The position numbers and the translations under genes were made by a program. From IMG/VR virus record IMGVR_UViG_3300012979_000178: a DNA stretch of 25,123 nucleotides, one strand, 5' to 3'. Under the pieces are notes generated by a model. The model did no database searches, was not told the DNA's origin, and saw only the letters and a list, made by a program, of their open reading frames with translations. Every line of letters begins with the position of its first letter. The first letter of the stretch is position 1. This stretch comes from a virus. Shown here one piece after another: positions 9,403 through 23,429 of the stretch.

Positions 9403-9915
9403 ATGATATTAATATTAATTTTAGCAATAGTTTTTATTATTTTTCTAATCTGTGGAATTATAAGTGATAGCGATTATGGTAATCATATCGTTGTAAATGG
9501 AACTGAAATTTCTTTTAAGACATTTGAAGCTATGTACAATATTAAACCAGAGGCTTGGGAATTAGAAAAAACAAGAATTGTATATAAAAAGCCACATTAT
9601 ACAACTTTAAGTAGAATCGATGGTACCCCATATAAAATGTGGATGCATAATGATAAATATTATTTTTTCTTTAGTTTTCGAGATTATTGTAAATATAGAA
9701 AATTTTTATCTCGATTAGAAGATCTAAAAATTCAAAAAGCTGAATATGAAAAAATGAAAAAAATTACAGATTGTTTTAAAGAAGATATAGAAGAATATAA
9801 AAAAACGCATGAAGAAGAAGTTGTAAAAAAACTTAAAGAAATTAATCAAATAGGCTATGAAATTAAATCCAATGACGGCACAAATTATTTTTGTTTAAAA
9901 AGGAGAGGAAAATAA
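9403..9915 (+). CDS. N-terminally membrane-anchored hypothetical protein
   Basis: RBS GGAG. The N-terminal 20 residues are hydrophobic. Confidence 0.55.
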   Translation: MILILILAIVFIIFLICGIISDSDYGNHIVVNGTEISFKTFEAMYNIKPEAWELEKTRIVYKKPHYTTLSRIDGTPYKMWMHNDKYYFFFSFRDYCKYRKFLSRLEDLKIQKAEYEKMKKITDCFKEDIEEYKKTHEEEVVKKLKEINQIGYEIKSNDGTNYFCLKRRGK

Positions 9916-9995
9916 TGTATAACGCTTATGTGACCACTTTAAAAAACGTACATAAACATCCTAATACCTTTTAAAAACATTTTAATGTAAAAAAT

Positions 9996-10042
9996 TTGGA
10001 CAATAGAATGTATTTATCCTTATTAAAAAATTAAATATAATA
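9996..10042 (+). promoter_or_regulatory. putative sigma-70-like promoter (TTGGACA ... TATAAT) upstream of 10077
   Basis: A -35-like TTGGACA with TATAAT at 10037-10042. The spacing is imperfect. Confidence 0.3.
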
Positions 10043-10076
10043 GAAAAAATATTTATTTTTAAAGGAGAAAATAAAA

Positions 10077-10811
10077 ATGCCTGAATTAAATTTAGCTGGA
10101 TCAAAAATAGGATTTTGGGATGTCTTAGAAAAAGATAGTGAAAAATCTAAAGAAAAACATTAGAGTTATTGGAAATGTAAATGTAATTTATGCGGAAATA
10201 TTTATTCTGTTAGAGGTTCAAGTTTAAATAATGGTCAAAGTCAAAAATGTGGAACCTGTTCTCGTTCTTACAATGTAAAAGATGAGACTGGGCAAAAATA
10301 TAATAAATTAACAGTTTTATATAAAACAGAGTCAAAAAATAATAGAGTAATGTGGAAATGTCGATGTGATTGTGGAAATCATATTGACGTAAGTGGAACT
10401 GATTTAAGGACTGGTGCAGTTAAATCTTGTGGAAAATGCCCAGGAAAAGAAAGCTTAGGAGAAAAATTAATTAGAGAAAAATTGACTCAATTTGGAATTG
10501 ATTTTATCCAAGAATATACTTTTAAAGATCTTATTTTTGAATCTGGTCATTATGCACGTTTTGATTTTTATATACCCTCTCATAATTATATAATAGAATT
10601 TGATGGTATCCAACATTTTAACTATGATAATAACTCTTCTTGGAATACAGAAAAAAATTTTTTAGAAACAAAAAAACGAGATAGTATAAAGAATAATTAT
10701 TGTTTTAATCATAATATTCCAATAATTAGAATTCCTTATGATTATAAAGAGGAGTTAACTGCTTTTGATTTAATTCCTCAAACTTCTAAATTTTTAATTA
10801 AGAAAGGGTGA
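10077..10811 (+). CDS. triple zinc-ribbon (W-x-C-x-C-x-CG ... SCGxC repeats) plus C-terminal DUF559/Vsr-like PD-(D/E)xK endonuclease domain; one in-frame TAG at 10161
   Basis: RBS AAAGGAGAAAAT and ATG at 10077. The frame is continuous with track ORF 10350..10811 apart from the TAG. The C-terminus reads FDFYIP..IIEFDGIQH ... RDSIK...NIPIIRIPY, which fits the DUF559 pattern. It is paralogous to 12336..13187. Confidence 0.6.
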
Positions 10812-10817
10812 AAAATA

Positions 10818-12248
10818 ATGTCAACTCATTGTGGATATGTGGTAAATATTAAAGAATTAAGACCTCACTCTAATGCAGATAAACTTCAAATAGCAACTTT
10901 TTTTGGTAATGATACTTGTGTGGGACTTGATGTAAAATTAGATGATATTGGAATTTATTTTCCCTCTGATTTACAACTTTCTGTAGAATTTTGCGAACAG
11001 CATAATCTTGTTCGCCGTAAGGATGACAGCGGTAACAACGTTGGTGGATATCTTGATCCCGACAAAAGAAACATTCGCACTATAAAACTTCGTGGTGAGA
11101 AGAGTGATGGTCTATTTATGCCTCTTCAGTGCCTCGCTTATACTGGCATTAATCTTGATGACCTTAATATTGGAGATCGTATTGATATTGTAAATGGGCA
11201 TGAAATTTGTAAGAAATATATCCCTCGCTCCAATAGACGTAAAGGTTCTTATTCCGAGGGCAATAAGACTCGTAAACATAAAGTTCCTGTTGCTCCGCTC
11301 TTTGCGGAACACGCAGATACAGAACAACTTGCTTATAATCTTAATGCCTTTAAAGCGGGCGACCAAATTGAAATTACTTTAAAAATGCACGGTACTAGCC
11401 ATCGTGTTGGCTATCTTGAAACCCTTCAGGGATATAAAAGAACATTTGCGGATAAAATTTTCCGGCGTGAAGGTACTCCAGAATATAATTGGGGTTATGT
11501 TGCTGGAACTCGTAGAACTGTTCTCGAAGATTATAATGGCGGTTATTATGGCAGCAACGAGTTTAGAGAAGTACATACTAAATTTTTCAATGGCAAACTT
11601 TGGAAGGGTGAAACTGTATATATGGAAATTGTAGGTTTCACTAATGATGGTACTCCTATTATGTCCAATTGCGAAAACAAAAAATTAAATGATAAAGATT
11701 TTATTAAGCAGTATGGAGATATTACCGTCTTCTCTTATGGTTGCGATCCTGCTGGATATACAGAACTTCCTATGAAAGATACTGGATTGCCTTATGGCGC
11801 AGTAGTTTCTGTTCCAAAATCAGAAATTTACGTATATCGTATGACTATGACTAATGAAGATGGTAATATAGTAGAATACACCCCTGACTTTATGAGATAT
11901 CGTTGCGAACAGATGGGCGTTAAAACTGTCCCTGTTCTTTGGAAAGGTTTTATTCCTTATACTATAGATGATGTTGAATCTGCCATTCCCGGTCATAGAA
12001 TTATACTTAAAGAAGGAGAAAGTGCCGGAGAATGGATTAAAAATGTTGCCGAGCAATATTACGATGGTCCAGATCCGGTTGGTAAGACTCATACTCGAGA
12101 AGGCGTTGTAGTAAGAATTATAAATCGTCCTAAATTCTGTGCTTATAAGCACAAAAATCATTCATTTAAGATGGTTTCTGGAATTATTACTGAGGCCGTT
12201 GCGGATAGCAATATTGAAATTAGCGAAGATATTTTAGCAGAACTTTAA
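10818..12248 (+). CDS. RNA ligase (Rnl2-type nucleotidyltransferase motif KMHGTS) fused to an N-terminal EMAP/Myf-type tRNA-binding OB fold
   Basis: The N-terminal VVNIKELRPHSNADKLQIATF matches the tRNA-binding-domain signature (HPNADKL). Motif I is K-x-H-G-T-S, as in T4 Rnl2 (KIHGTN). There is a GC jump at about 10985. Confidence 0.75.
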   Translation: MSTHCGYVVNIKELRPHSNADKLQIATFFGNDTCVGLDVKLDDIGIYFPSDLQLSVEFCEQHNLVRRKDDSGNNVGGYLDPDKRNIRTIKLRGEKSDGLFMPLQCLAYTGINLDDLNIGDRIDIVNGHEICKKYIPRSNRRKGSYSEGNKTRKHKVPVAPLFAEHADTEQLAYNLNAFKAGDQIEITLKMHGTSHRVGYLETLQGYKRTFADKIFRREGTPEYNWGYVAGTRRTVLEDYNGGYYGSNEFREVHTKFFNGKLWKGETVYMEIVGFTNDGTPIMSNCENKKLNDKDFIKQYGDITVFSYGCDPAGYTELPMKDTGLPYGAVVSVPKSEIYVYRMTMTNEDGNIVEYTPDFMRYRCEQMGVKTVPVLWKGFIPYTIDDVESAIPGHRIILKEGESAGEWIKNVAEQYYDGPDPVGKTHTREGVVVRIINRPKFCAYKHKNHSFKMVSGIITEAVADSNIEISEDILAEL

Positions 12249-12265
12249 AGTCTTTGTGGGTATTT

Positions 12266-12302
12266 TTGATTAATTTTAAAGTCTTAAATGGCATAATATA
12301 AT
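12266..12302 (+). promoter_or_regulatory. promoter (TTGATT ... TGGCATAATATAAT) upstream of 12336
   Basis: An extended -10-like TGGCATAAT/TATAAT. It is flanked by an 11-bp direct repeat TTTAAAGTCTT. Confidence 0.4.
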
Positions 12303-12335
12303 GAAAGAAAAGTATTTTTAGAAAGGATTTATATT

Positions 12336-13187
12336 ATGCCATTTAAAGATAGAACTAATATAAAATATGGAAAATTAACTGCAAAAGAATATTTAGGTAA
12401 AAGTATGTGGAAATGCATTTGTGATTGTGGTCAAGAAAAAATCGTGTATGGAGGCCACTTGGAAAGTGGTCATACTTAGTCATGTGGTTGTATTCGTCCT
12501 CCAAGAACTAAATTATATGGACAAAAATTTGGTAGATTAACAGTATTAAACTGGGAAGGAAACGGCAAGTGGCGTTGTCAATGCGAATGCGGAAATGAAG
12601 TATTGGTTCAAACCGATAATTTAAAATCTGGCAATACCAAATCTTGTGGCTGCTTACAAAAAGACAAAGCAAGTGACGCATCATTCATTTCTCTTGTTGG
12701 TAATCGTTATGGAAAACTTTTAGTAATTGAACGAGTAGAAAATAATCGTTTTGGACATGTATGCTATCGCTGTAAGTGCGATTGTGGTGGTGAAACTATT
12801 GTTGATGCTACAAACCTACGTAATGGCAATACCAATTCCTGTGGTTGTATTAAATCCAAAGGAGAAATGATTATCAACAACTGGTTACTAGAACATAATT
12901 TCGATTTCCGCAGTCAATATTCTTTTGACGATTGTATTTTATCTACCGGCCGCAGACCTTTTTTCGACTTCGTTTTATTCAAGAATGATAAACCATATCT
13001 TGTGATAGAATATAACGGCCGCCAACATTACGAAGTAACCGGCGGATGGAACACAGAAGAGCAGTTTGCTAAAACACAACGCCGTGATAGCGAAAAACTA
13101 CAATGGTGTGAAGATAATCACTATCCAATATTGATAATAAAATATGATGAAGATATTGAAAAAATATTGGAGGAAAGATTATTATGA
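12336..13187 (+). CDS. paralogue of 10077..10811: triple zinc-ribbon plus DUF559/Vsr-like endonuclease; one in-frame TAG at 12477
   Basis: RBS GAAAGGATTTATATT and ATG at 12336. It is in frame with track ORF 12603..13187 and shares the repeat pattern W.C.C.CG...N(T/S)(K/N)SCGC. The C-terminus reads FFDFVLF...LVIEYNGRQH...RRDSEK. Confidence 0.6.
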
Positions 13188-13198
13188 GGAATTCCTAA

Positions 13199-13485
13199 TG
13201 AAATGTAATCGTTGCATAAATAAAAATACTGAATATTGCGAAACTTGTATTGACCATCCCAAATGGGCAAATAGACCTAAACAATCTAATTTTCAATTAT
13301 ATAAACCCACTTGTCCATTTGGATATAAAGATTGTATTAATGACCCCGCATATATTCTATGGAGTGATCCAGAATGGTATAAAGAATTATATAATACTTT
13401 ATCCCCAGAAGAAGCCGCAAAAGAAGAAGATGGAAGTTGCGGCTTATGCGATATGGGAAGTGATTATGATGATGAAGACAAATAA
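13199..13485 (+). CDS. Cys-rich small protein with an acidic C-terminus
   Basis: An ATG follows the previous TGA, preceded by a weak GAGG. There are CxxC clusters and a DYDDEDK tail. Confidence 0.45.
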
Positions 13486-13501
13486 AAAGGAGAAATAAAA
13501 A

Positions 13502-13618
13502 ATGAAACTTGACAAGACCTATATTGAAAATCGAATTGCTAATCTTGAAAGAAATTATACTCAAAATATTAATCTTATTAAAAAGTGGAAGCGTTATTTG
13601 CGCAGATGTGAGAAGTAA
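13502..13618 (+). CDS. small basic 38-aa protein
   Basis: Strong RBS AAAAGGAGAAATAAAAA. It ends at a TAA immediately before a terminator. Confidence 0.4.
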   Translation: MKLDKTYIENRIANLERNYTQNINLIKKWKRYLRRCEK

Positions 13619-13620
13619 GA

Positions 13621-13652
13621 AAAAGCGGGATATTCCCGCTTTTTTGTTTTTT
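13621..13652 (+). terminator. rho-independent terminator
   Basis: Stem AGCGGGA / TCCCGCT with a TAT loop, followed by a T-run. Confidence 0.8.
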
Positions 13653-13675
13653 ATAAATATTTATGGTATAATAAA
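13644..13675 (+). promoter_or_regulatory. conserved promoter copy 6 (-35 TTGTTT, extended -10 TGGTATAAT)
   Basis: Motif match upstream of pncA. Confidence 0.65.
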
Positions 13676-13695
13676 ATAAAAAAGGAATAAAAATA

Positions 13696-14253
13696 ATGAA
13701 GATTGTAATTGTTGTTGATTTACAAAATGATTTTATTACAGGCTCTCTTGGTTCCACCGAAGCGCAGGCTATTATTCCAAATGTAAAAGACCATCTGCGG
13801 TCATTAGATGAAAAAGATCATGTAATTTTTACCATGGATACTCATTTTGATGACTATCTTGAAAGCGGTACTTTGGAAAGCGAAAAGCTTCCCATTAAGC
13901 ATACCATTAAAGGAACTGATGGTTGGCTAATTTTTGAAGATTTAACCTCTTTGCCTCCGGGACCGCAGACATTGGCACCAAAGCAGACTTTTTGCTCTTG
14001 GGATTTTGATAGTGTTATTGTAGACGAAGTTTGTAATTATCTTAAAAATAATGAAAATCTTGAAAAAGATCTAGAATTTGAAATTTTTGGAGTTTGTACT
14101 GATATTTGCGTTGTTTCTATCGCCCTTTATCTAAGATCTTTTTATCCTAGTGTTAAAATCACTTGCCTTAAAGATCTTTGCGCGGGCTCTTCTCCTGCGG
14201 CACATGAAGCTGCTTTGACTGTTATGAAATCTTGTATGATTGATATTACGTAA
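13696..14253 (+). CDS. pncA: nicotinamidase (PncA), isochorismatase family
   Basis: N-terminal VVDLQNDF, a conserved Lys region (IKHTIKGTDGW) and GVCTDICV carrying the catalytic Cys. Confidence 0.75.
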   Translation: MKIVIVVDLQNDFITGSLGSTEAQAIIPNVKDHLRSLDEKDHVIFTMDTHFDDYLESGTLESEKLPIKHTIKGTDGWLIFEDLTSLPPGPQTLAPKQTFCSWDFDSVIVDEVCNYLKNNENLEKDLEFEIFGVCTDICVVSIALYLRSFYPSVKITCLKDLCAGSSPAAHEAALTVMKSCMIDIT

Positions 14254-14267
14254 ACGGAGGAATGATT

Positions 14268-15176
14268 ATGCCAGTACATGACGATCTTGGAACTCGCATG
14301 AAAGAGTTCTATGAACAAGTCCCACGTTTTCGATTAACTAGAAGAATGCCCGTGGTAATTAGACTCGACGGGAAATCCTTCCACACCTTTACACGCGGTT
14401 TTGAAAAGCCATTTGATGAAGTGCTTGGTAGAGCGATGCGAGAGACTATGAAATATCTTTGTGAGAATATTCAGGATTGCGTCCTTGGATATACTCAATC
14501 CGATGAAATTACTTTAATTCTTGTTGACTATAAAGAATTAAATAGTTCTGCTTGGTTTAATTATGAAATTCAAAAAATGTGTTCTATTTCTGCTTCTATG
14601 GCAACTATGGTATTTAATAAATTTTTTGAAAAAGAAGTTAATAAATGGACAAACCAAGCTTTTCCAACTGATTATTTAGGATATAATACTGGGAAAATTT
14701 CAGTTGCTGATATTGAACTAAAAGGTACTTATATAAAATCTCTCAATAAAGGCGCAATGTTTGATTCTCGTTGTTTTAACATTCCAAAAGAAGAAGTAGC
14801 CAATTTGATCTATTGGCGACAACTAGATGCTACGCGTAATTCTATTCAAATGGTAGGTCAAGCTAATTTCTCTCATAAAGAACTTCAAAATAAATCTTGT
14901 AATGATATTCAAAATATGCTTTTTGAAAAGAAAAATATTAATTGGAATGATTTCCCAACTCACTTAAAACGTGGCTCTTGTTGCGTTAAAATAGAGACTT
15001 CTACTGTTTTTGCTATCGAGCATGAAGACGGTACTGTTGAAACTGGTGCCGTTGAGCGACCTCATTGGGAAATTGATCTGGAAATTCCGATCTTCAAAAA
15101 TGAAGGACGAGAATATATTAATCGTCGTATTCTTTATAAAGAAAAGCCTGAAACAACTATTGCTTATATTAATTAA
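14268..15176 (+). CDS. Thg1-like protein (TLP), a 3'-5' nucleotidyltransferase acting in tRNA 5'-end repair or addition
   Basis: VVIRLDGKSFHTF...KPFD...DCVLGYTQSDEITL matches the Thg1 core (VVRLDGRNFHRF...AYGQSDEYSF). The start was chosen at 14268 because its spacing to GGAGG is better than for the ATG at 14262. Confidence 0.75.
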   Translation: MPVHDDLGTRMKEFYEQVPRFRLTRRMPVVIRLDGKSFHTFTRGFEKPFDEVLGRAMRETMKYLCENIQDCVLGYTQSDEITLILVDYKELNSSAWFNYEIQKMCSISASMATMVFNKFFEKEVNKWTNQAFPTDYLGYNTGKISVADIELKGTYIKSLNKGAMFDSRCFNIPKEEVANLIYWRQLDATRNSIQMVGQANFSHKELQNKSCNDIQNMLFEKKNINWNDFPTHLKRGSCCVKIETSTVFAIEHEDGTVETGAVERPHWEIDLEIPIFKNEGREYINRRILYKEKPETTIAYIN

Positions 15177-15180
15177 AAAT

Positions 15181-15219
15181 AAAATCCTCTTATATTTTAA
15201 GAGGATTTTTGTTTTTTAT
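15181..15219 (+). terminator. rho-independent terminator
   Basis: A 12-bp stem AAAATCCTCTTA / TAAGAGGATTTT followed by a T-run. Confidence 0.8.
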
Positions 15220-15244
15220 AAAAAAATATGATATAATATATATA
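15209..15244 (+). promoter_or_regulatory. conserved promoter copy 7; near-identical to copy 3
   Basis: Sequence TTGTTTTTTATAAAAAAATATGATATAATATATATAGAAAA. Confidence 0.7.
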
Positions 15245-15271
15245 GAAAATAAAAAAAAGGAATTTATAAAA

Positions 15272-15433
15272 ATGAATCTTGATGATACAATTAAAAGAAT
15301 AAAAAGCGATGTTGCCGAGATTAGTTCTAAAATGATGACTGGAAAAACTATTGAAGAACAAGTTAAAGAAATTGTACTAAAAGATAGTGGTAAAAAAGTA
15401 AAAAATTCTATTATAGGTAAAAATATAAAATGA
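15272..15433 (+). CDS. small 53-aa hypothetical protein
   Basis: RBS AAAAGGAATTTATAAAA and ATG at 15272, which is in frame within track ORF 15209..15433. Its TGA overlaps the next start. Confidence 0.4.
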   Translation: MNLDDTIKRIKSDVAEISSKMMTGKTIEEQVKEIVLKDSGKKVKNSIIGKNIK

Positions 15434-15960
15434 ATAATTTTCAAAAATTTTTTGGTCACTTACACACAGTAAATAAACATCGCTTTATAGTTTGTAAACT
15501 ATGCTTTAAATGCGGTTTATATTGGCAAGGACTTACCCATGATCTTTCTAAATATTCGCCAGTAGAATTTATCAATGGTGTAAAATTTTATACTGGAAAA
15601 GCCTCTCCTCATCTTGGTGAACGAAAAGCATATGGATATAGCAAGGCTTGGTTAAATCACAAAGGACGCAATAAGCACCATGGAGAATATTGGCAAGATA
15701 TTGGATCAGATGGATTTACTCATCCCATTGATATGCCAAAAAATTATCTTATTGAAATGATTTGTGATAGAGTCGCGGCTTCAATGATTTATCTTGGAGA
15801 AAATTATACAGATAAAGCACCTTTGGAATATTATCAAAGCCATAAAGATGAAAATCAATTTAGTGATTATACAAGATTTTATTTAGAAGAATATTTAACA
15901 AATATCGCTAATTATGGTTTTGATGCTGCTATGAAGAGTAAAACTACATATAAATGCTAA
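15430..15960 (+). CDS. small HD-domain-like phosphohydrolase
   Basis: H...H (GHLHTVNKH), then THDLSK about 28 aa later, then HHGEYWQD...D. This fits HD motifs I-V. Confidence 0.55.
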   Translation: MNNFQKFFGHLHTVNKHRFIVCKLCFKCGLYWQGLTHDLSKYSPVEFINGVKFYTGKASPHLGERKAYGYSKAWLNHKGRNKHHGEYWQDIGSDGFTHPIDMPKNYLIEMICDRVAASMIYLGENYTDKAPLEYYQSHKDENQFSDYTRFYLEEYLTNIANYGFDAAMKSKTTYKC

Positions 15961-15987
15961 CTATTAAATAAGCTAGGAGAAAATTAA

Positions 15988-16440
15988 ATGAAACTTGAAA
16001 TTGATCTTGATCTTAATAAAATTGACTATGATTCTATTAATAAATAGATAAAACAAAAAATTGAAGATTTAGATATTGCTAATGTTTATACTATTGATGA
16101 TAGAATTAAAAATGAATTAAATGCTCAGATTAGCCAAGTAATTAATGAAAATATGTATCGAAATTATTGGTCTAATACATTAGATAATAAAACCGAAGGA
16201 CATATTCAAGACGAGCTAAGAATTCTCATTAAAGAAGCAATAACCCCATCAGTGAATAATGTTTTTAATAAAATTTCAGAAGAAGAAATAGAAAAAATGA
16301 TTTTACATATTCTTCCGAAAGCATTAGTTATGCTACTGATAGATAATCTTAAAGGTTCACTTTATTCTTTACAAAATGACCAAACCTACTTAATGGAATC
16401 AGTTATAGAAAATCATATAAACCGTAGATTAAATAGATAA
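15988..16440 (+). CDS. hypothetical protein with one in-frame TAG at 16045
   Basis: Strong RBS AGGAGAAAATTAA and ATG at 15988. It is in frame with track ORF 16153..16440. Confidence 0.5.
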
Positions 16441-16454
16441 GGAAATTAATAATT

Positions 16455-17690
16455 ATGATGAAACTTTCTCCTATTATTACTCATCTTACCGATACTGACC
16501 TTTATAAATTTACTATGTTACAGACTATGTTTCATAGACATACAAATCTTAATGGCACTTATCTTTTTAAATGCCGAAACGCAGGAGTTAAATTTACCAA
16601 AGAAATGATGGATGAGATCAATGCGCAGATTGATCATCTTTGTACTTTGCGCTTTACAGATGAAGAACTTGATTATCTTGGCTCTTTACGCTTTATTAAG
16701 CCTGATTTTATTGAATTTCTTCGCATTTGGCATCCTTTGCGCAGATATGTAAATTGTTATATTTATGATCATCCGGGATGTCCAGATGAAGGAGAACTTT
16801 TTGTCGAAGTTCATGGTCCACTCTTTAACACTATGATGTTTGAAATTTATCTTCTTGCTATTGTAAATGAAGTATATTTTCGTATGAAGTATAATTATCT
16901 TGACCTCATTAATGGCGCGAGAGAAAAACTTTACCACAAACTTAGCGGATTTAATCATTTTGATGAAGAAGGCAATAAAGCCCCTCTCTATACTTTTAAA
17001 TTTGCGGAATTTGGTACCAGAAGAAGATTAAGTCGTGAATGGCAGGATTATGTAATGAAAGAACTTATTGCTACTGGATATTGCGCCGGTACCTCTAACG
17101 TATATCTTGCTATGAAATATGGTATCAAAGCAATTGGTACTTATGCGCATGAATATGTTCAGATGTTTCAGGGTATTCCCGGCATTCAGCTTGCTTATAC
17201 CAACAAAGCCGCTCTTGAAGAATGGTTTGAAGAATATCAGGGCGACCTTGGAACTGCATTGACTGATACTCTTGGCACTGATATTTTTCTTCGTGATTTT
17301 AATAAACTTCAAGCTATGTGTTATACCGGAGTACGTCATGATAGTGGAGATCCTTATGAATGGGGCGAAAAGATTATCGAACACTATCTTAAACTCGGCA
17401 TCGACCCCAAAACCAAAACTCTTCTTTTTAGTGATAGTCTCGATTTTGAAAAAGCACAGGCAATTTATGACCATTTTAATGGGCGTATTAATGTAAGTTT
17501 TGGTATTGGTACTTATCTTACTAATGACACAGGAGTAAATCCCCTCAATATCGTTATTAAACTTCAGTATGTAAATGATCATCCAGTAGCAAAATTAAGC
17601 GACGTAGAAGGCAAAACTATGTGCCAAGATGAAAATTATGCTAATTACTTGGCACGCGCAGTTAATTATAGATTAGAAGAAGGTATTTAA
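16455..17690 (+). CDS. pncB: nicotinate phosphoribosyltransferase (PncB)
   Basis: It tracks E. coli PncB closely: TDLYKFTM, FGTRRRLSREWQ, GTSNVYLA, GTYAHE, RHDSGDP.EWGEK, GIDPKTK.LLFSD, FGIGT.LT, PLNIVIKL, PVAKLSD. Confidence 0.9.
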   Translation: MMKLSPIITHLTDTDLYKFTMLQTMFHRHTNLNGTYLFKCRNAGVKFTKEMMDEINAQIDHLCTLRFTDEELDYLGSLRFIKPDFIEFLRIWHPLRRYVNCYIYDHPGCPDEGELFVEVHGPLFNTMMFEIYLLAIVNEVYFRMKYNYLDLINGAREKLYHKLSGFNHFDEEGNKAPLYTFKFAEFGTRRRLSREWQDYVMKELIATGYCAGTSNVYLAMKYGIKAIGTYAHEYVQMFQGIPGIQLAYTNKAALEEWFEEYQGDLGTALTDTLGTDIFLRDFNKLQAMCYTGVRHDSGDPYEWGEKIIEHYLKLGIDPKTKTLLFSDSLDFEKAQAIYDHFNGRINVSFGIGTYLTNDTGVNPLNIVIKLQYVNDHPVAKLSDVEGKTMCQDENYANYLARAVNYRLEEGI

Positions 17691-17691
17691 T

Positions 17692-18204
17692 ATGAATTTC
17701 ATTTTTCGAGGATTCGAAATAAATCCAAAAGGCAAGGAAAAAATTTATATCAACAATAAAGAACTTCTAGGTGATTGGCACGAAGGATATTTTACTCGAT
17801 ATGCGAGAACTGCTGTCGTAGGAGTCCCTGTAATTGAAACAGAATGGGATAGTTATGTTATTGATGAACGAACCATTTGTCCTTGCCTTTCTTATATTGA
17901 TTCTAAAGGAAAACATTTTGGTCATATGGACATAATCACTTGTATTGACGCAAATGATGAAATTGATAAATTTTTACTTCAATGGAATAGTGAGGGACAA
18001 GAATTCCAAGTTATTTTCTTAAATTGCCAAGAAAAATTATATGGAACTAATACAAGCTATTTTATTAGTTTTGATTTTTTTGATTGGGCTGAATTTGTAG
18101 CAAACGTTCTTCAAAATATCCACGGAATTTATAAATCTATTGAAATAACTAATAATGCTTTTTCTGATCCTAATTTTTTTAAAAAAGGAATTATTCCGTG
18201 GTAA
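17692..18204 (+). CDS. hypothetical protein translationally coupled between pncB and nadM
   Basis: Its ATG lies 1 nt after the pncB TAA. I recognised no motif. Confidence 0.6.
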   Translation: MNFIFRGFEINPKGKEKIYINNKELLGDWHEGYFTRYARTAVVGVPVIETEWDSYVIDERTICPCLSYIDSKGKHFGHMDIITCIDANDEIDKFLLQWNSEGQEFQVIFLNCQEKLYGTNTSYFISFDFFDWAEFVANVLQNIHGIYKSIEITNNAFSDPNFFKKGIIPW

Positions 18205-18236
18205 TAATAAATTAAAAATCAAATGAGGTATAATAA

Positions 18237-18800
18237 ATGTTTGGAGCAATTTTGTTTAGGGCACAGCCCTTTCACAATGGACATTTGCATATGATTAAAA
18301 CTGCTTATGCCGATTGTAAAAAATTTGGTATAGATTTATATATTTTTATTGGTAGCGCAGATAAATATGGTACTAAAAGAAATCCTTTACCTATTGAGCT
18401 AAGAAGAAATTTAGTAATTAATTCTTTAAATGAATATTTTTCTGAAGAAGAATTAAATCATATTTATGTATTTACTCTTGATGATCTTAGCGATGAAGCA
18501 AATAACACTTACGCTTGGGGAGATTATTTATATATTAAAATGTGTTCTAAAGCTAATGATCCAGAATTTATTTTTTACTATAGTGATAAACCTTCTATTG
18601 TGTTAAGTTGGTTTGCTCCAGATTTATGTAAAAATATAATGTATAAATTTTTACCGCGTTATCATACAATTAATGCTACTGCAATAAGAGAAGCTATTAT
18701 TGATAATGAATTTTGTCCTAATTGGTTGGAATATGATATACCAGAAACGGTAATAGCAGAATACAATACTATCAGAGAATATTTATTGGAGGCTATTTAA
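18237..18800 (+). CDS. nadM: NadM-type nicotinamide/nicotinate mononucleotide adenylyltransferase (cytidylyltransferase fold, HxGH)
   Basis: FRAQPFHNGHLHMIK and IFIGSADK...NPLP match archaeal NadM (GRFQPFHKGHL; IGIGSAQ). Confidence 0.75.
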   Translation: MFGAILFRAQPFHNGHLHMIKTAYADCKKFGIDLYIFIGSADKYGTKRNPLPIELRRNLVINSLNEYFSEEELNHIYVFTLDDLSDEANNTYAWGDYLYIKMCSKANDPEFIFYYSDKPSIVLSWFAPDLCKNIMYKFLPRYHTINATAIREAIIDNEFCPNWLEYDIPETVIAEYNTIREYLLEAI

Positions 18801-19531
18801 TGAAAGATTTAGTGCAAGATATAATTAAATGGATTAAAGAATATTTTGAAATGTCCCCTCCTAATACAAAAGCAGTAATTGGGATTTCCGGAGGCAAAGA
18901 TTCAACCATTGCTACTGCGCTTTTGGTTGAAGCCTTAGGTAAAGATAGAGTAATTGGAGTACGAATGCCCCAGGGTGTTCAATCTGATATTGATATGGCT
19001 AGAGAAGTATGTGATTATTTTGGTATTGAATCTTATGAAATCAATATTGGAAATATTTGTGAAACTTTATATCAGACTATTGGAGAAAATTATAAAGAAA
19101 ATCCAGTAGTTTCTACTAATACTCCAGCAAGAATACGTATGACTATTCTATATGCTATTGCTGGAATGTATAATGGTAGAGTTGTTAATACTTCAAATGC
19201 TTCTGAAATTTTTATAGGTTATTCAACTAAAAATGGCGATGGCGCAGGAGATTTTAGTATTACACGCGATTTTACTGTAAGAGAATTAAAAAAAATCGGT
19301 TATTATCTTGGACTTCCTAAAAAATTTATTGACAAAATTCCCGAAGATGGAATGAGTGGTAAGACTGATGAAGAAAAATTAGGTTTTTCATATGAGGTAA
19401 TAGATGATATTTTGATGTATAATGAATTTCCTGATGAAGCTCTTACCCAAAAGATTACTAATTTATACACCAAAAATTTACATAAAATTTCTCCAATGCC
19501 ATATTATTATAATAAGGGGTATTTAGAATGA
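18800..19531 (+). CDS. nadE: NH3-dependent NAD+ synthetase (NadE)
   Basis: PP-loop GISGGKDS; overall NadE-like. The start overlaps the nadM stop. Confidence 0.85.
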   Translation: MKDLVQDIIKWIKEYFEMSPPNTKAVIGISGGKDSTIATALLVEALGKDRVIGVRMPQGVQSDIDMAREVCDYFGIESYEINIGNICETLYQTIGENYKENPVVSTNTPARIRMTILYAIAGMYNGRVVNTSNASEIFIGYSTKNGDGAGDFSITRDFTVRELKKIGYYLGLPKKFIDKIPEDGMSGKTDEEKLGFSYEVIDDILMYNEFPDEALTQKITNLYTKNLHKISPMPYYYNKGYLE

Positions 19532-20322: not shown

Positions 20323-20580
20323 ATGTTAGGAAGTCCTCATTTTATTGAAGATTGTTGTGTTTGGTCAAAAGAAAAACTTGAATCAATGAAAACTCGACAA
20401 CTTTTAAATCATTATCGCTCAATTTATTCTTGGGGAGGATATAATTGGTTTCCTGAAGATTATCAAGCCAAACGAGAATATCAAAAACAAGTTAAAGCGA
20501 TACTTTCTACAAGAGAACACATTCCTAATAAATTAGAGAGTAAAATGATAAGAAAAGAAAAGATAAAGAAAGGAGTATAA
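20323..20580 (+). CDS. hypothetical protein of 85 aa
   Basis: RBS GAAAGGAAATAAAA. Confidence 0.5.
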   Translation: MLGSPHFIEDCCVWSKEKLESMKTRQLLNHYRSIYSWGGYNWFPEDYQAKREYQKQVKAILSTREHIPNKLESKMIRKEKIKKGV

Positions 20581-20585
20581 TAATT

Positions 20586-21275
20586 ATGGCTGTATATGCT
20601 TTATCTGACTTACATGGTAATAAAGAATTATTTAAAAAGGTTAAATCTTTTTTAAATGAAAAAGATACAGTATATTTTCTTGGGGATGCTGCTGATAGAG
20701 GTCCTGATGGTTGGGAACTTATTAAAACAATTTATGAAGACTCTCAATTTATTTACGCTAAAGGCAACCACGAAGATATGCTTGTAAATTCTATTAAAGA
20801 ATTCTGTGAAATGAATTCCAAAAGTGGAGATTGTGATTTACTTTTTTACAACGGCGGTAAACAGACCTTTAATGCTTGGCGTAAAGATGGGGCAAAGAAG
20901 AGTTGGGCTACCAAGCTTGAAAAATTACCGGCTTGGCTTGCTTATATTAATACTAAAGGTCAGCTTATCAGTATGAGTCATGCTGGTTTTACTCCAAAAC
21001 CCAACGAATTTCCTTCTCATAGTGATTTAATGTGGAGTAGAGATCACTTTCTTGATGATTGGGATGAAGAGGTAAAAAATTGTATTATTGTTCATGGACA
21101 TACTCCTATTCTTTTTCTTGCAGAAGATTTAAAAATCAAAGAAGAAGAACTTGAGCTTAAACCGTTATGGTATTGTAATAACAAAAAGGTTTGTATTGAT
21201 TTGGGCGCGCATATGACTAATGCCACAACTCTTTTAAATCTTGATACATTTGAATATTATTTGTTTCAAGTCTAA
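20586..21275 (+). CDS. lambda-PPase-family metallophosphoesterase (Ser/Thr phosphatase or polynucleotide 2',3'-phosphatase type)
   Basis: Motifs SDLHGN, GDAADRG, GNHE, W.RD and HGHT are present. The architecture resembles lambda PPase and the CthPnkp phosphatase domain. Confidence 0.8.
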   Translation: MAVYALSDLHGNKELFKKVKSFLNEKDTVYFLGDAADRGPDGWELIKTIYEDSQFIYAKGNHEDMLVNSIKEFCEMNSKSGDCDLLFYNGGKQTFNAWRKDGAKKSWATKLEKLPAWLAYINTKGQLISMSHAGFTPKPNEFPSHSDLMWSRDHFLDDWDEEVKNCIIVHGHTPILFLAEDLKIKEEELELKPLWYCNNKKVCIDLGAHMTNATTLLNLDTFEYYLFQV

Positions 21276-21285
21276 TAATTAATTT

Positions 21286-21321
21286 TGATTTTATATTATA
21301 AAAATGTTATAATATATATAT
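21286..21321 (+). promoter_or_regulatory. conserved promoter copy 9
   Basis: TTGATT, 17 nt, TGTTATAATATATATA. Confidence 0.7.
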
Positions 21322-21342
21322 CAAATGAAAAGGAAATAAAAA

Positions 21343-21816
21343 ATGAAAAAAATTTATTTACTTTGTGGTATTCCCGGTTCAGGAAAAAGCACTTGGGCAA
21401 AAAGCCAACTTGATAATAAATCTGTCTGGATTTCAAGAGATCAGATAAGATTCTCTATGGTTTCAGAGTCAGAAGAATATTTCTCTAAAGAAAAAGAAGT
21501 ATTTCGAGAATTTATTAAAGAAATTAATTTAGCAATTAGAAATAAAAATTTTGATAATATTTATATAGATGCAACACATCTTAACACTATAAGTAGATAT
21601 AAAGTTTTGGATAAAATTGCTTTAAAAGATGTTGATGAACTTAATATTATTTTCTTTAATACCCCTTTGAATATTTGTCTCGAAAGAAACTCTTATCGTT
21701 TTGGAAGAGAAAAAGTACCAGAAGAAGTAATTAAAAAAATGTATAAAACTGTTGTTCCTCCTCATCTTGATGATAAATATTTATATAATAATATTATAGT
21801 AAAAGGAGATGAATAA
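21343..21816 (+). CDS. pnk: polynucleotide 5'-kinase, a P-loop domain of the T4 Pnk kinase type
   Basis: LLCGIPGSGKST (Walker A), RD (catalytic Asp region), and a C-terminus with LERNSYRFGREKVPEEVIKKMYK that resembles T4 Pnk ([22 protein letters not shown]). Confidence 0.8.
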   Translation: MKKIYLLCGIPGSGKSTWAKSQLDNKSVWISRDQIRFSMVSESEEYFSKEKEVFREFIKEINLAIRNKNFDNIYIDATHLNTISRYKVLDKIALKDVDELNIIFFNTPLNICLERNSYRFGREKVPEEVIKKMYKTVVPPHLDDKYLYNNIIVKGDE

Positions 21817-21819
21817 ATA

Positions 21820-21855
21820 TTGATTTGGCTTTGTAGCGATTGGCATTTTAATTAA
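21820..21855 (+). pseudogene. 11-codon remnant of a metallophosphoesterase N-terminus ((M)IWLCSDWHFN*), duplicated downstream at 22864
   Basis: A TTG start 11 nt after AAGGAG. The peptide carries the MPE motif I (D-W-H) and is nearly identical to MAIWITSDWH at 22864..22893. Confidence 0.4.
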
Positions 21856-21922
21856 AATGCCGGTCAAAACACAATAAAATATTTAGAACAATTTTCTAAT
21901 TTAATTAAGAGGTGATGTTAAA

Positions 21923-22861
21923 ATGTATAGTGTATATAAAATTACCAATATTATAAATTAGAAAAATTATATTGGTTCAAGTATTAGACCTGAAAAGCGT
22001 TGGAAAGAACATATTAATAATGCTAATAACCCAAATTCATAGGCATATAATTATCCGTTACAATGTGCTTTTCGAAAATACGGAATTGAAAATTTTAATT
22101 TTGAAATTTTAAAAGATGATTTTAATACTCAAAGTGAAATGACAGAATATGAATAGTTAATGATTATTTTTTATGATTCATTGAATAATGGGTATAATCA
22201 AACTTTACAAACAAATTAGAGTGAAATAGCAAAAGAAAATTTAGAAAAATATTTATAGACAATTCGTTGTAAATGTGCTAAAATAGATAAAAATAATAAT
22301 ATTTTAGAAATTTATAATTCTTATCATGAAGCTGCTAAAAAAAATGGAATGGATCCTGATAATTGTGCTAGTTCAATTAGAGATGTTTGTAAAGGAAAAA
22401 CTTCAAGTGCTAAAGATAAATTTATTTTTCGAGATTTAGATGCTAATGATAATATAATTATTTAGCCGTTTAAACCCTATAAAGGCAAAAAAGCAATAAT
22501 TGGTATTCATATAGAAACAAAAGAAGAAATTTATTTTAATTCTATTAGTGAAGCAGCTAAAATATTAAATACAGATCGTTGGAGTATAACCCAATGTATA
22601 CAAGGAGTATCTCGATACTCCAAAGTTAAAAACTATATATTTAGAGAATTAGATTAGAATGGCAATATTGTAGAAGTTGAAAATTCCATAGAAAATATTT
22701 TACAAAAATATAATTAGACAAATCCGGAAATAAATGGTGAAAGACACACTTTTAAAGACTGGTGTAAAATTTATGGAATTTCTGAAAGTTCTGTTAGAAA
22801 AAGAATAAAAAAAGGAATGGGTGTTGTAGAAGCAATTACAACCCCAAAAGAGAGGTGATTT
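21923..22861 (+). CDS. GIY-YIG homing endonuclease (I-TevI/Seg-like) with 8 in-frame TAG codons
   Basis: The N-terminus VYKITNIIN*KNYIGSS...EKRWKEHI corresponds to the GIY-YIG and RWKEH motifs (compare I-TevI IYQIKNTLNNKVYVGS...EKRWKRHF), followed by NGYN. The frame is continuous for 313 codons apart from the TAGs. It ends at the TGA at 22859. Confidence 0.7.
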
Positions 22862-22863
22862 TT

Positions 22864-23429
22864 ATGGCAATCTGGATTACTTCAGATTGGCATTAGTTTA
22901 TTTTTGCCATGACAGAGAATTTATCTGGGGTCCAAGGCATTTTAATTCTGTTGAAGAAATGAATGAAACTATTGTAGATAGACATAATTCTTTGGTTCTT
23001 CCAGAAGATGATGTATATGTATTGGGCGATTTGATGCTTAATGATAATGAAAAAGGTATTGAATTAATTAAGCGTATGAATGGTAAACTTCATATTGCTA
23101 TTGGAAACCATGACACAGCACCAAGAATTGAATTGTATAAAACTTTACCGAATTTAGTAGATATTAATTACGTTCACACATTTAAATATAGAAAATATAA
23201 TTTCTATTGTTCTCATTATCCTACATTAACAGGAAATCTTGAAGCTGAATCGCTTCATCAAGTAGCAATTAATCTATATGGACATACTCATCAGTCGAGT
23301 AAATTCTATGAAGATAGACCATATATGTTTCATTGTGGTATGGATTCAAATGCTTGTTATCCTGTAAATATTGATTACATTATTGATAAGTGTAAAAATA
23401 AAGTGGCTGAATGCATTGAAATGCTTTAA
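22864..23429 (+). CDS. calcineurin-like metallophosphoesterase with a frame disruption after codon 10. It is a possible pseudogene, sequencing indel or recoding site.
   Basis: RBS AGAGAGG and ATG at 22864 give MAIWITSDWH (motif I D-x-H), then a TAG. The remaining motifs (GDLML, GNHD, GHTH) are in the -1 frame, which is track ORF 22887..23429. Confidence 0.55.

Follow-up and report, generated by a model that had tools for sequence, protein, structure and literature searches.

The stretch of viral DNA analyzed here, 25,123 nucleotides (nt) of IMG/VR record IMGVR_UViG_3300012979_000178 (the window), is a fragment of a phage genome, AT-rich (30.7% GC) and with essentially all genes on the plus strand, in which two open reading frames (ORFs), designated e1 and e2, flank an RNA ligase gene (Table 1). 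Our analysis suggests that e1 and e2 are, in all likelihood, distinct free-standing homing endonucleases of one large, uncharacterized phage family that spread by intronless homing. The initial annotation, made from the sequence alone, had placed the two genes on either side of the ligase gene and had likened them to free-standing homing endonucleases. Their positions proved correct, and the likeness is supported by a patchy distribution, by filled and empty sites, by the excess conservation of e2 and by relics of displaced ligase ends. Both genes are intact once TAG is read through, each ending in TGA, whereas under the standard code the two regions break up into fragments (47 and 194 amino acids (aa) for one, 153 aa for the other). 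Each is preceded by a ribosome-binding site, and the distance from the e1 stop to the ligase ATG is 6 nt and that from the ligase stop to the e2 ATG 87 nt. The identity of the ligase gene follows from its match to PHROG 968 'RNA ligase' (E 5e-65), while Pfam RNA_ligase scored slightly below its 27-bit cutoff (26.9 bits).

For comparison, 160 phage loci with a relative of the ligase gene at 57-67% identity were collected by scanning IMG/VR and JGI data (none was closer than 67%), and close relatives were obtained from protein-cluster look-ups; all related loci are given L-numbers. A gene of the endonuclease family was found directly upstream of the ligase in 11/134 loci and directly downstream in 13/139, so that the genes are not universally conserved at fixed positions and most related phages carry the ligase alone, a presence/absence polymorphism of the kind that the initial annotation had proposed to look for. 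Among the close relatives, L162 (ligase 95% identical to that of the window at the amino acid level) has e1 and lacks e2, L164 (77%) as well as L165 and L166 (72%) have neither gene, and L081 (90% identical DNA) carries e2, its e1 region lying beyond the contig. In e1-free loci a gene of 170 aa, located upstream, abuts the ligase. Moreover, the same two positions are occupied elsewhere by mutually distant lineages of the family (approximately 36-40% identity), upstream in L024, L080, L092, L096 and L163 and downstream in L036, L041, L129 and L139. In L163, positions 1..289 encode the C-terminus of a further family lineage, which immediately precedes the ligase start and overlaps with it.

In addition, e2 is more conserved than the gene next to it. 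The e2 proteins of L081, L167, L168 and L169 are 97.5%, 87.2%, 89.4% and 90.4% identical to that of the window, compared to 85.8% (C-terminal 190 aa only), 73.0%, 65.1% and 70.5%, respectively, for their ligases. Synonymous divergence (dS) in the same genome pairs was 0.33-1.33 for e2 versus 0.76-3.2 for the adjacent ligase, and e2 has therefore spread between genomes later than these genomes diverged. The ratio of nonsynonymous to synonymous divergence (dN/dS) between e2 and its orthologs was 0.03-0.08 over the whole length, including the codons before the TAG; therefore the protein is under purifying selection. A further endonuclease of the family is present in L081 (3012..3851) between the isochorismatase and Thg1 genes, which abut in the window (14253/14262), and the Thg1 gene beside it is 69% identical to that of the window, as opposed to approximately 90% for the rest of the locus.

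Junctions of the two cassettes with the ligase gene

On the upstream side, the 60 nt between the 170-aa gene and the spacer preceding e1 match the ligase start of e1-free loci (MYNAYVTTLKNVHKHPNAD in L164) and are cut off after AATGC. The DNA of the e1-free loci L164 and L165 aligns with the window up to position ~9965, that is 50 nt beyond the stop codon of the 170-aa gene, and the empty-site sequence is broken directly after CCTAATGC, at ~9966. The ATG of this relic overlaps the stop codon of the 170-aa gene, an arrangement identical to that of the intact ligase ATG in relatives without e1, and the same 5' relic is present in L162. The resident ligase has a different N-terminus, MSTHCGYVVNIKELRPHSNAD, and merges again with the common sequence at this AATGC; the e1-linked ligase 5' end runs to ~10874 and is followed by sequence diverged from L164 to ~11160. 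The relic together with the rejoining at AATGC indicates that the ligase reading frame was invaded by the e1 cassette at approximately codon 18-19 and that a new 5' end came with the cassette. The idea that the e1-linked N-terminus is specific to endonuclease carriers was rejected, since both N-terminal types are common in loci without an endonuclease (59 and 54 loci).

On the downstream side, homology to the e2-free close relatives is lost at 12169/12170, between AAAAAT and CATTC and 26 codons before the ligase stop, and is regained at 13481. After this break the ligases of e2-free loci encode ...FSFKCLEGIVKAEAE.PDIEEA..., with ends of the form ...HKNFSFKCLEGIVKAEAE.PD(I/M)EEA..., while e2-positive ligases end in ...HKNHSFKM(V/I)SGII...EDILAEL, a replacement tail referred to as B-type that was found in all close e2-positive relatives. 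The filled and empty sites of L081 and L165 are the most direct comparison, with flanks that are 96.5% and 97.0% identical and an insert of 1131 bp in L081, comprising the B-type tail, the spacer and e2, that replaces 50 bp of ligase sequence relative to L165. The end of the old ligase tail, DMEEAEDIAKEEV followed by a stop codon, was left downstream of this insert. Displaced A-type tails also follow the e2 orthologs of L091, L142 and L167, which brings the number of such relatives to four. In L091 (4523..5581) and L142 (6483..7466) the endonuclease ORF runs into the old ligase tail (...NIEKVLEGIIKDTAAAPDMEEAQ... and a stop codon), so that the right junction can be assigned to a short K-(V/I)-L-E stretch in which the C-terminal end of the endonuclease matches the ligase. 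The e2-type ORF of these two loci (...IEKVLEGIIKDTAAAPDMEEAQ... to its stop codon) is thus an endonuclease with a ligase-derived C-terminus.

B-type tails were found in 6/14 loci with a downstream endonuclease gene compared to 7/112 without one (Fisher p 7e-4). A B-type tail unique to e2 carriers had to be rejected as an absolute rule, with eight B-type loci lacking an endonuclease, and the enrichment stands. The occurrence of this tail without an endonuclease fits a co-conversion of ordinary allelic sequence followed by later endonuclease loss. At both junctions the carrier alleles no longer contain an intact empty-site sequence, which is either split or replaced.

Protein architecture and the wider family

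Both proteins combine an N-terminal array of cysteine-rich repeats with a C-terminal nuclease domain that is predicted to be Vsr-like. The repeat unit reads W-x-C-x-C-x-C-G-x17-C-G-(x)-C and contains five cysteines, the positions of which are invariant among 77 homologs. Three such units precede the nuclease domain of e2 (residues ~175-283), in agreement with the three zinc ribbons initially assigned to each protein, whereas e1 has only two (residues ~6-62 and ~70-122). Presumably, the repeats bind zinc, and they would recognize DNA. None of the Pfam or NCBIfam models matches them, and a Foldseek search of the PDB with the repeats gave no significant match, the likeness to tandem Tudor/SH3-like barrels (E ~0.01-0.05) not being relied on. 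Neither NUMOD nor helix-turn-helix (HTH) domains were detected in e1 or e2 with Pfam.

The nuclease motifs described in the initial annotation can be read directly in both proteins, as FDF...IEFDGIQH...RD..K...IPIIRIPY in e1 and FDF...IEYNGRQH...RDSEK in e2. Five residues, D211, E225, G228, H231 and D251, do not vary among the 77 homologs; at least 96% of them also have K254 and Q230 (the glutamine of G-x-Q-H in 74/77), and 70/77 have E177. E177, D211, H231 and D251 would fit a composite E-D-x-H-D pattern. An AlphaFold2 model of P0001, a protein 98% identical to e2, reached a predicted local distance difference test (pLDDT) score of 89.9, and in this model the C-terminal domain has a predicted Vsr-like PD-(D/E)xK nuclease fold. 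The assignment derives from fold comparison, and the three structures compared belong to one PD-(D/E)xK clade (PMC3424549); searches of PDB sequences, with a single sequence as well as with a profile of the 77 sequences, yielded no match to 3r3p or Vsr at E<=10. Thus, of the DUF559/Vsr-like PD-(D/E)xK domain proposed initially, the fold and its Vsr-like character are supported by the model, whereas DUF559 (PF04480) did not match e1 or e2 in Pfam at E<=1 and was below the gathering score. For DUF2726 (PF10881), e2 scored 18.3 bits and e1 14.3 bits, both below the cutoff of 24.7, and precomputed PF10881 matches exist for a minority of the homologs, so that this relationship is real but marginal. 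One homolog is named 'very-short-patch-repair endonuclease' in one source.

Both proteins match PHROGs named 'HNH endonuclease', 'homing endonuclease' or 'intron encoded nuclease' (E 1e-15 to 1e-50; for e1, PHROG 559, 9084 and 7140 at E 1e-17 to 1e-38). The name 'HNH', carried by PHROG 559 and 374 and by many GenBank records, is a mis-annotation, because neither e1 nor e2 has an HNH motif or an HNH match in Pfam and the catalytic domain has, as modeled, a PD-(D/E)xK fold. The name was inherited from profiles in which the shared array of repeats is mixed with other nucleases.

With 34% identity (E 1e-31), e1 and e2 belong to one family, as the initial description of the two as paralogs implied. 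They are separate lineages and not the result of a local duplication, because much closer orthologs of either protein exist in other phages (93% for e1 and 98% for e2 among the closest; the L162 ortholog of e1 is 99% identical). Of 1.84 billion cluster representatives searched, 68,196 matched the family at E<=1e-3, including 2,554 with E<=1e-30. The number of repeats per protein ranges from 1 to 11, and the array is also found fused to AP2, HTH and helicase domains. Predicted viral structures of the same architecture bear the names 'homing endonuclease', 'group I intron protein', 'restriction enzyme' or 'DUF2726'. The DNA-binding array, initially regarded as unusual, is less so, since tandem zinc-finger arrays have already been described (PMC10448857) and the repeat itself occurs in tens of thousands of proteins. 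The array might be modular, with each bead reading a few base pairs through helix positions +18, +19, +21 and +23 and with repeat number and order setting the length and sequence of the target, a proposal that we consider unlikely at present. If true, the family would provide a natural scaffold for programmable DNA binding, joined to a compact Vsr-like cleavage domain, and its recognition code could be deduced from the numerous pairs of filled and empty sites present in metagenomes.

TAG codons and the genomic setting

In this phage, TAG most likely encodes glutamine, as in genetic code 15, to judge from the codon's distribution in the window and its relatives. Six genes of the window carry in-frame TAG codons: beside e1 and e2 these are 159..635 (two TAGs), the tail-fibre-like gene 646..2601 (seven), 15988..16440 (one) and a third homing endonuclease gene with eight (Table 1), while approximately 27 others have none. 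The first two, 159..635 and 646..2601, look structural (tail-fibre-like), and the third endonuclease gene is flanked by an AAA_33 kinase-like gene and by a metallophosphatase ORF, the 5' end of which overlaps with the 3' end of the endonuclease gene. TAG use is thus concentrated in structural and endonuclease genes; all three endonuclease genes of the window contain TAG, compared to 3 of ~30 other genes (Fisher p 0.004), an excess that is compatible with delayed expression without proving it.

When the proteins of the window were aligned with related loci, stops inside conserved alignments were TAG in 145 cases, TAA in 31 and TGA in 12, and the residue of the window opposite a TAG of its relatives was glutamine in 21/122 cases (17%) against a background of 2.6%. 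Within the endonuclease family all in-alignment stops were TAG, and in twelve family genes from eleven loci the TAG occupies the position of the glutamine in G-x-Q-H. The e2 gene of L081 has a TAG where that of the window encodes glutamine. The TAG codon of e1 is kept in the orthologs of L162, L034, L042, L045, L062 and L151, including ones of only 62% identity, and that of e2 is replaced by AAG (Lys) in close relatives and is also TAG in L081. According to the initial annotation each TAG lies inside a repeat, aligned to K or N of the sister repeats. For e2 the codon indeed falls on a variable repeat position (family tally K 435, Q 150, T 130, N 105), whereas in e1 it precedes the tryptophan of repeat 1 by three residues. 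Transfer RNAs (tRNAs) with the anticodon CTA, i.e. amber suppressors (labeled 'Pyl' by ARAGORN), were found in two related loci, L010 (302..392) and L159 (221..295).

Table 1. Positions of the principal features in the window.
Feature	Position	Strand	Remarks
Ancestral ligase 5' relic	9915..9974	+	encodes MYNAYVTTLKNVHKHPNTF, then stop; displaced upstream by the e1 cassette
Spacer before e1	9975..10076	+	AT-rich; TATAAT box 10036..10041; AGGAG ribosome-binding site; read from sequence
e1	10077..10811	+	putative free-standing homing endonuclease gene; 244 aa; TGA stop; TAG read through
In-frame TAG of e1	10161..10163	+	codon 29
RNA ligase gene	10818..12248	+	host gene, presumed target; mosaic
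Replacement (B-type) ligase C-terminal tail	12170..12248	+	HSFKMVSGIITEAVADSNIEISEDILAEL, then stop; travels with e2
Spacer before e2	12249..12335	+	TTTAAA-16-TATAAT match 12275..12302; AAAGGA ribosome-binding site
e2	12336..13187	+	putative free-standing homing endonuclease gene; 283 aa; TGA stop; TAG read through
In-frame TAG of e2	12477..12479	+	codon 48
Variable slot 3' of e2	13188..13480	+	95-aa Cys-rich ORF 13198..13485; homology to all relatives resumes at 13481
Third homing endonuclease gene	21923..22858		GIY-YIG and NUMOD (Pfam E 3.5e-8); 8 in-frame TAGs

Each gene had also been credited with a promoter-like region of its own. Both are indeed preceded by an AT-rich spacer with a TATAAT box approximately 35-40 nt before the ATG, but a scan for consensus sigma-70 sites called the e2 spacer only, the total of 27 such sites did not exceed the expectation from shuffled sequence (19.8 +/- 4.1), and the recurrent promoter motif of the phage itself was not found in either spacer, so that this claim is weak. 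The recurrent motif is long, TTGATTTTC...AAAAATATGATATAATATATATA, and occurs 30-40 nt 5' of gene starts at 2679, 3182, 5841, 8092, 15232, 20288 and 21308; probably it represents the main promoter class of the phage. The sole convincing terminator-like element in 9700..13700 is a strong hairpin (13619..13645, with a 12-bp stem and a T run) after a conserved gene of 38 aa (13502..13618). The slot between e2 and this 38-aa gene is hypervariable, its place being taken in relatives by three unrelated alternative genes of 73-168 aa.

The locus is surrounded by a cluster of NAD-salvage and RNA-repair-type genes (13696..19531 and 20544..23429) with isochorismatase/nicotinamidase-like, Thg1, NAPRTase, NMNAT-like, NAD synthase, AAA_33 kinase and two metallophosphatase members. 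An ORF of ~850 aa (3216..5780) with a major vault protein shoulder (Pfam MVP_shoulder, E 1e-20) and repeat domains is unusual for a phage.

Proposed homing, alternative explanations and known systems

In the homing process that we propose, the N-terminal cysteine-rich array would recognize DNA and the C-terminal Vsr-like nuclease would cut it. In a co-infecting related phage without the genes, the ligase gene would be cut near one end by each enzyme, by e1 at approximately codons 17-20 (H-x-N-A-D) and by e2 at approximately codons 450-455 (A-Y-K-H-K-N-F), judging from the junctions. Repair would then copy the endonuclease gene of the carrier together with the adjoining ligase end, and the carrier allele would be protected by its split or replaced target. 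The ligase would stay intact because each cassette brings its own substitute terminus. The TAG codons, read as glutamine, would probably limit the full-length endonuclease to the phase of infection with active TAG suppression. DNA cleavage, exact cut sites, zinc binding and expression timing are all inferred. Both inner junctions coincide with the short motifs that are best conserved near the ligase ends, H-x-N-A-D-x-L-Q and A-Y-K-H-K-N, and homing endonucleases typically target such conserved motifs.

Several observations weigh against this interpretation. Conserved motifs are also where homologous crossovers fall regardless of the cut site, so that their coincidence with the junctions can be read in two ways. 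The B-type tail and both N-terminal types of the ligase also occur in endonuclease-free genomes, so that the ligase ends represent ordinary variation between alleles, transferred by co-conversion, and not special inventions. At the second acidic position of the E-x-D-G motif, asparagine is found in 16/16 members of the e2 clade compared to aspartate in 60/77 family members, and with this clade-wide substitution the catalysis of e2 could be altered or reduced. In distant genomes e1 is not more conserved than the ligase (62% vs 59-61%); the evidence for its recent mobility consists of the relic and the patchy distribution. No tRNA genes, suppressors included, were found in the 25-kb window, which is only a part of the genome, and no published cleavage assay was found for any family member combining zinc repeats with a Vsr-like nuclease.

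Alternatively, e1 and e2 might act as domesticated ligase partners or as general nucleases of the phage, serving in the degradation of host DNA, the exclusion of competitors or, jointly with the ligase, kinase and phosphatase genes, the repair of RNA or DNA, and not be selfish at all. The neighborhood of nucleic-acid repair and NAD metabolism (ligase, Thg1, AAA_33 kinase, metallophosphatases) and the strong purifying selection would suit such a role, and homing endonucleases can also serve as weapons in phage-phage competition. Nevertheless, this appears improbable to us, since approximately 90% of the related phages have the ligase without either gene, unrelated family lineages are found at the same sites, e2 is younger than the ligase gene that hosts it, relic gene ends mark the insertions and known defence-system models were not matched (PADLOC gave only 12.6 bits, E 0.005). 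A second possibility, that e1 and e2 once were homing endonucleases and, near the end of the homing cycle, are now decaying or catalytically dead, their TAGs being genuine premature stops, would explain the truncation of both genes under the standard code, the asparagine at a usually acidic motif position of the e2 clade and, as a loss after fixation, the 'immune' B-tail ligase alleles that lack an endonuclease. It is made improbable by the use of TAG as a sense codon in this phage group, with 7-8 TAGs in the tail-fibre-like and GIY-YIG genes, by the predominance of TAG among stops within conserved alignments, by its presence at a nearly invariant catalytic-motif glutamine in twelve family genes and its conservation in distant e1 orthologs, and by the low dN/dS of e2 over the full length of the gene.

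It is also conceivable that the endonuclease genes are borne by self-splicing introns or inteins within the ligase gene, in which case the 5' relic would be the true first exon. In other phages, homologs are found within terminase genes or bear the annotation of group I intron proteins, and splicing at the AATGC shared by the relic and the resident ligase would yield an in-frame ligase. Yet Rfam gave no match to a group I or group II intron or any other model in 9700..13700 even at E<=1, the non-coding stretches around e1 (~100 nt and 6 nt) leave no room for a ribozyme core, the resident ligase possesses its own ribosome-binding site, ATG and complete N-terminus, of a type native in 59 other loci, and e2 sits past the ligase stop codon, all of which render this explanation very improbable. 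Intronless homing of two free-standing endonucleases is therefore the reading that we retain.

Each element of the locus has a precedent. Homing endonucleases with a Vsr-like nuclease include the intron-encoded I-Bth0305I, which binds DNA through NUMOD/HTH elements (PMC3239194), and the free-standing, T4-type Hef (PMC2677866). Similar to e1 and e2, the I-Bth0305I/EDxHD family combines an N-terminal DNA-binding region with a C-terminal Vsr-like nuclease and is found in phages in intron-borne as well as free-standing form; the conserved glutamate, aspartate, histidine and aspartate of e1 and e2 may correspond to its E-D-x-H-D residues. In contrast, the DNA-binding part of e1 and e2 consists of tandem cysteine-rich repeats, the proteins lack a detectable sequence match to 3r3p (77-sequence profile, E>10), and their motif spacing, D...E-x-D-G-x-Q-H...R-D-x-x-K, is of the DUF559/DUF2726 type and not that of the EDxHD alignment. 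The signature D...E-x-D-G-x-x-H is common to e1, e2, DUF559 (PF04480; structure 3hrl) and DUF2726 (PF10881).

Intronless homing and marker exclusion are known from the free-standing T4 endonucleases (SegF, SegG and MobE, among others), and islands of homing endonuclease genes ('HEG islands') from ICP1-like phages (PMC2988022, PMC10448857). As in our locus, the endonuclease genes of these systems lie between or at the ends of conserved genes, are distributed patchily with co-converted flanks, mark boundaries of genetic exchange and may bracket a conserved gene in pairs. Their nucleases are, however, of the GIY-YIG, HNH and T5orf172 types and not Vsr-like as in e1 and e2, and, unlike in T4 and ICP1, the e1 and e2 cassettes enter coding sequence, supply substitute termini and leave displaced 5' and 3' ends behind. 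Tandem zinc-finger arrays have been described in phage homing endonucleases for CapR, DUF723 and a third family written DUF4397 in the text and DUF4379 in the figure legend of the same paper (PMC10448857). Those arrays resemble the repeats described here in being 'beads on a string' of small cysteine-rich domains with variable copy number that are shuffled among catalytic domains, and differ in being fused to a T5orf172 nuclease, whereas ours consist of a five-cysteine motif joined to a Vsr-like one.

Likewise, in-frame TAG codons read as glutamine are known from structural genes of code-15 gut phages (PMC9523058, PMC10607447, bioRxiv 10.1101/2021.08.26.457843), with which the present group has in common the suppressor tRNA-CTA of relatives and the TAGs in structural genes. 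In Agate phages, a recoded intron endonuclease contains TGA, and in-frame stops were proposed to delay the endonuclease until late infection (bioRxiv 10.1101/2021.08.26.457843); here, the codon is TAG and the endonucleases are free-standing. As far as literature searches show, the pairing of this repeat with this nuclease is undocumented as a characterized family, as is a locus in which one gene has had its two ends replaced and relics of either kind have been retained.

In summary, the locus represents a very clean natural record of intronless homing, in which two lineages of one family have come to lie at the two ends of one gene. It adds free-standing, TAG-recoded endonucleases to the published idea of delayed expression. 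A correct description of the family would improve phage annotation, in which the repeat has no domain model and the proteins are widely mislabeled as HNH, and the near-identical empty sites in metagenomes provide candidate target sequences that are directly testable.

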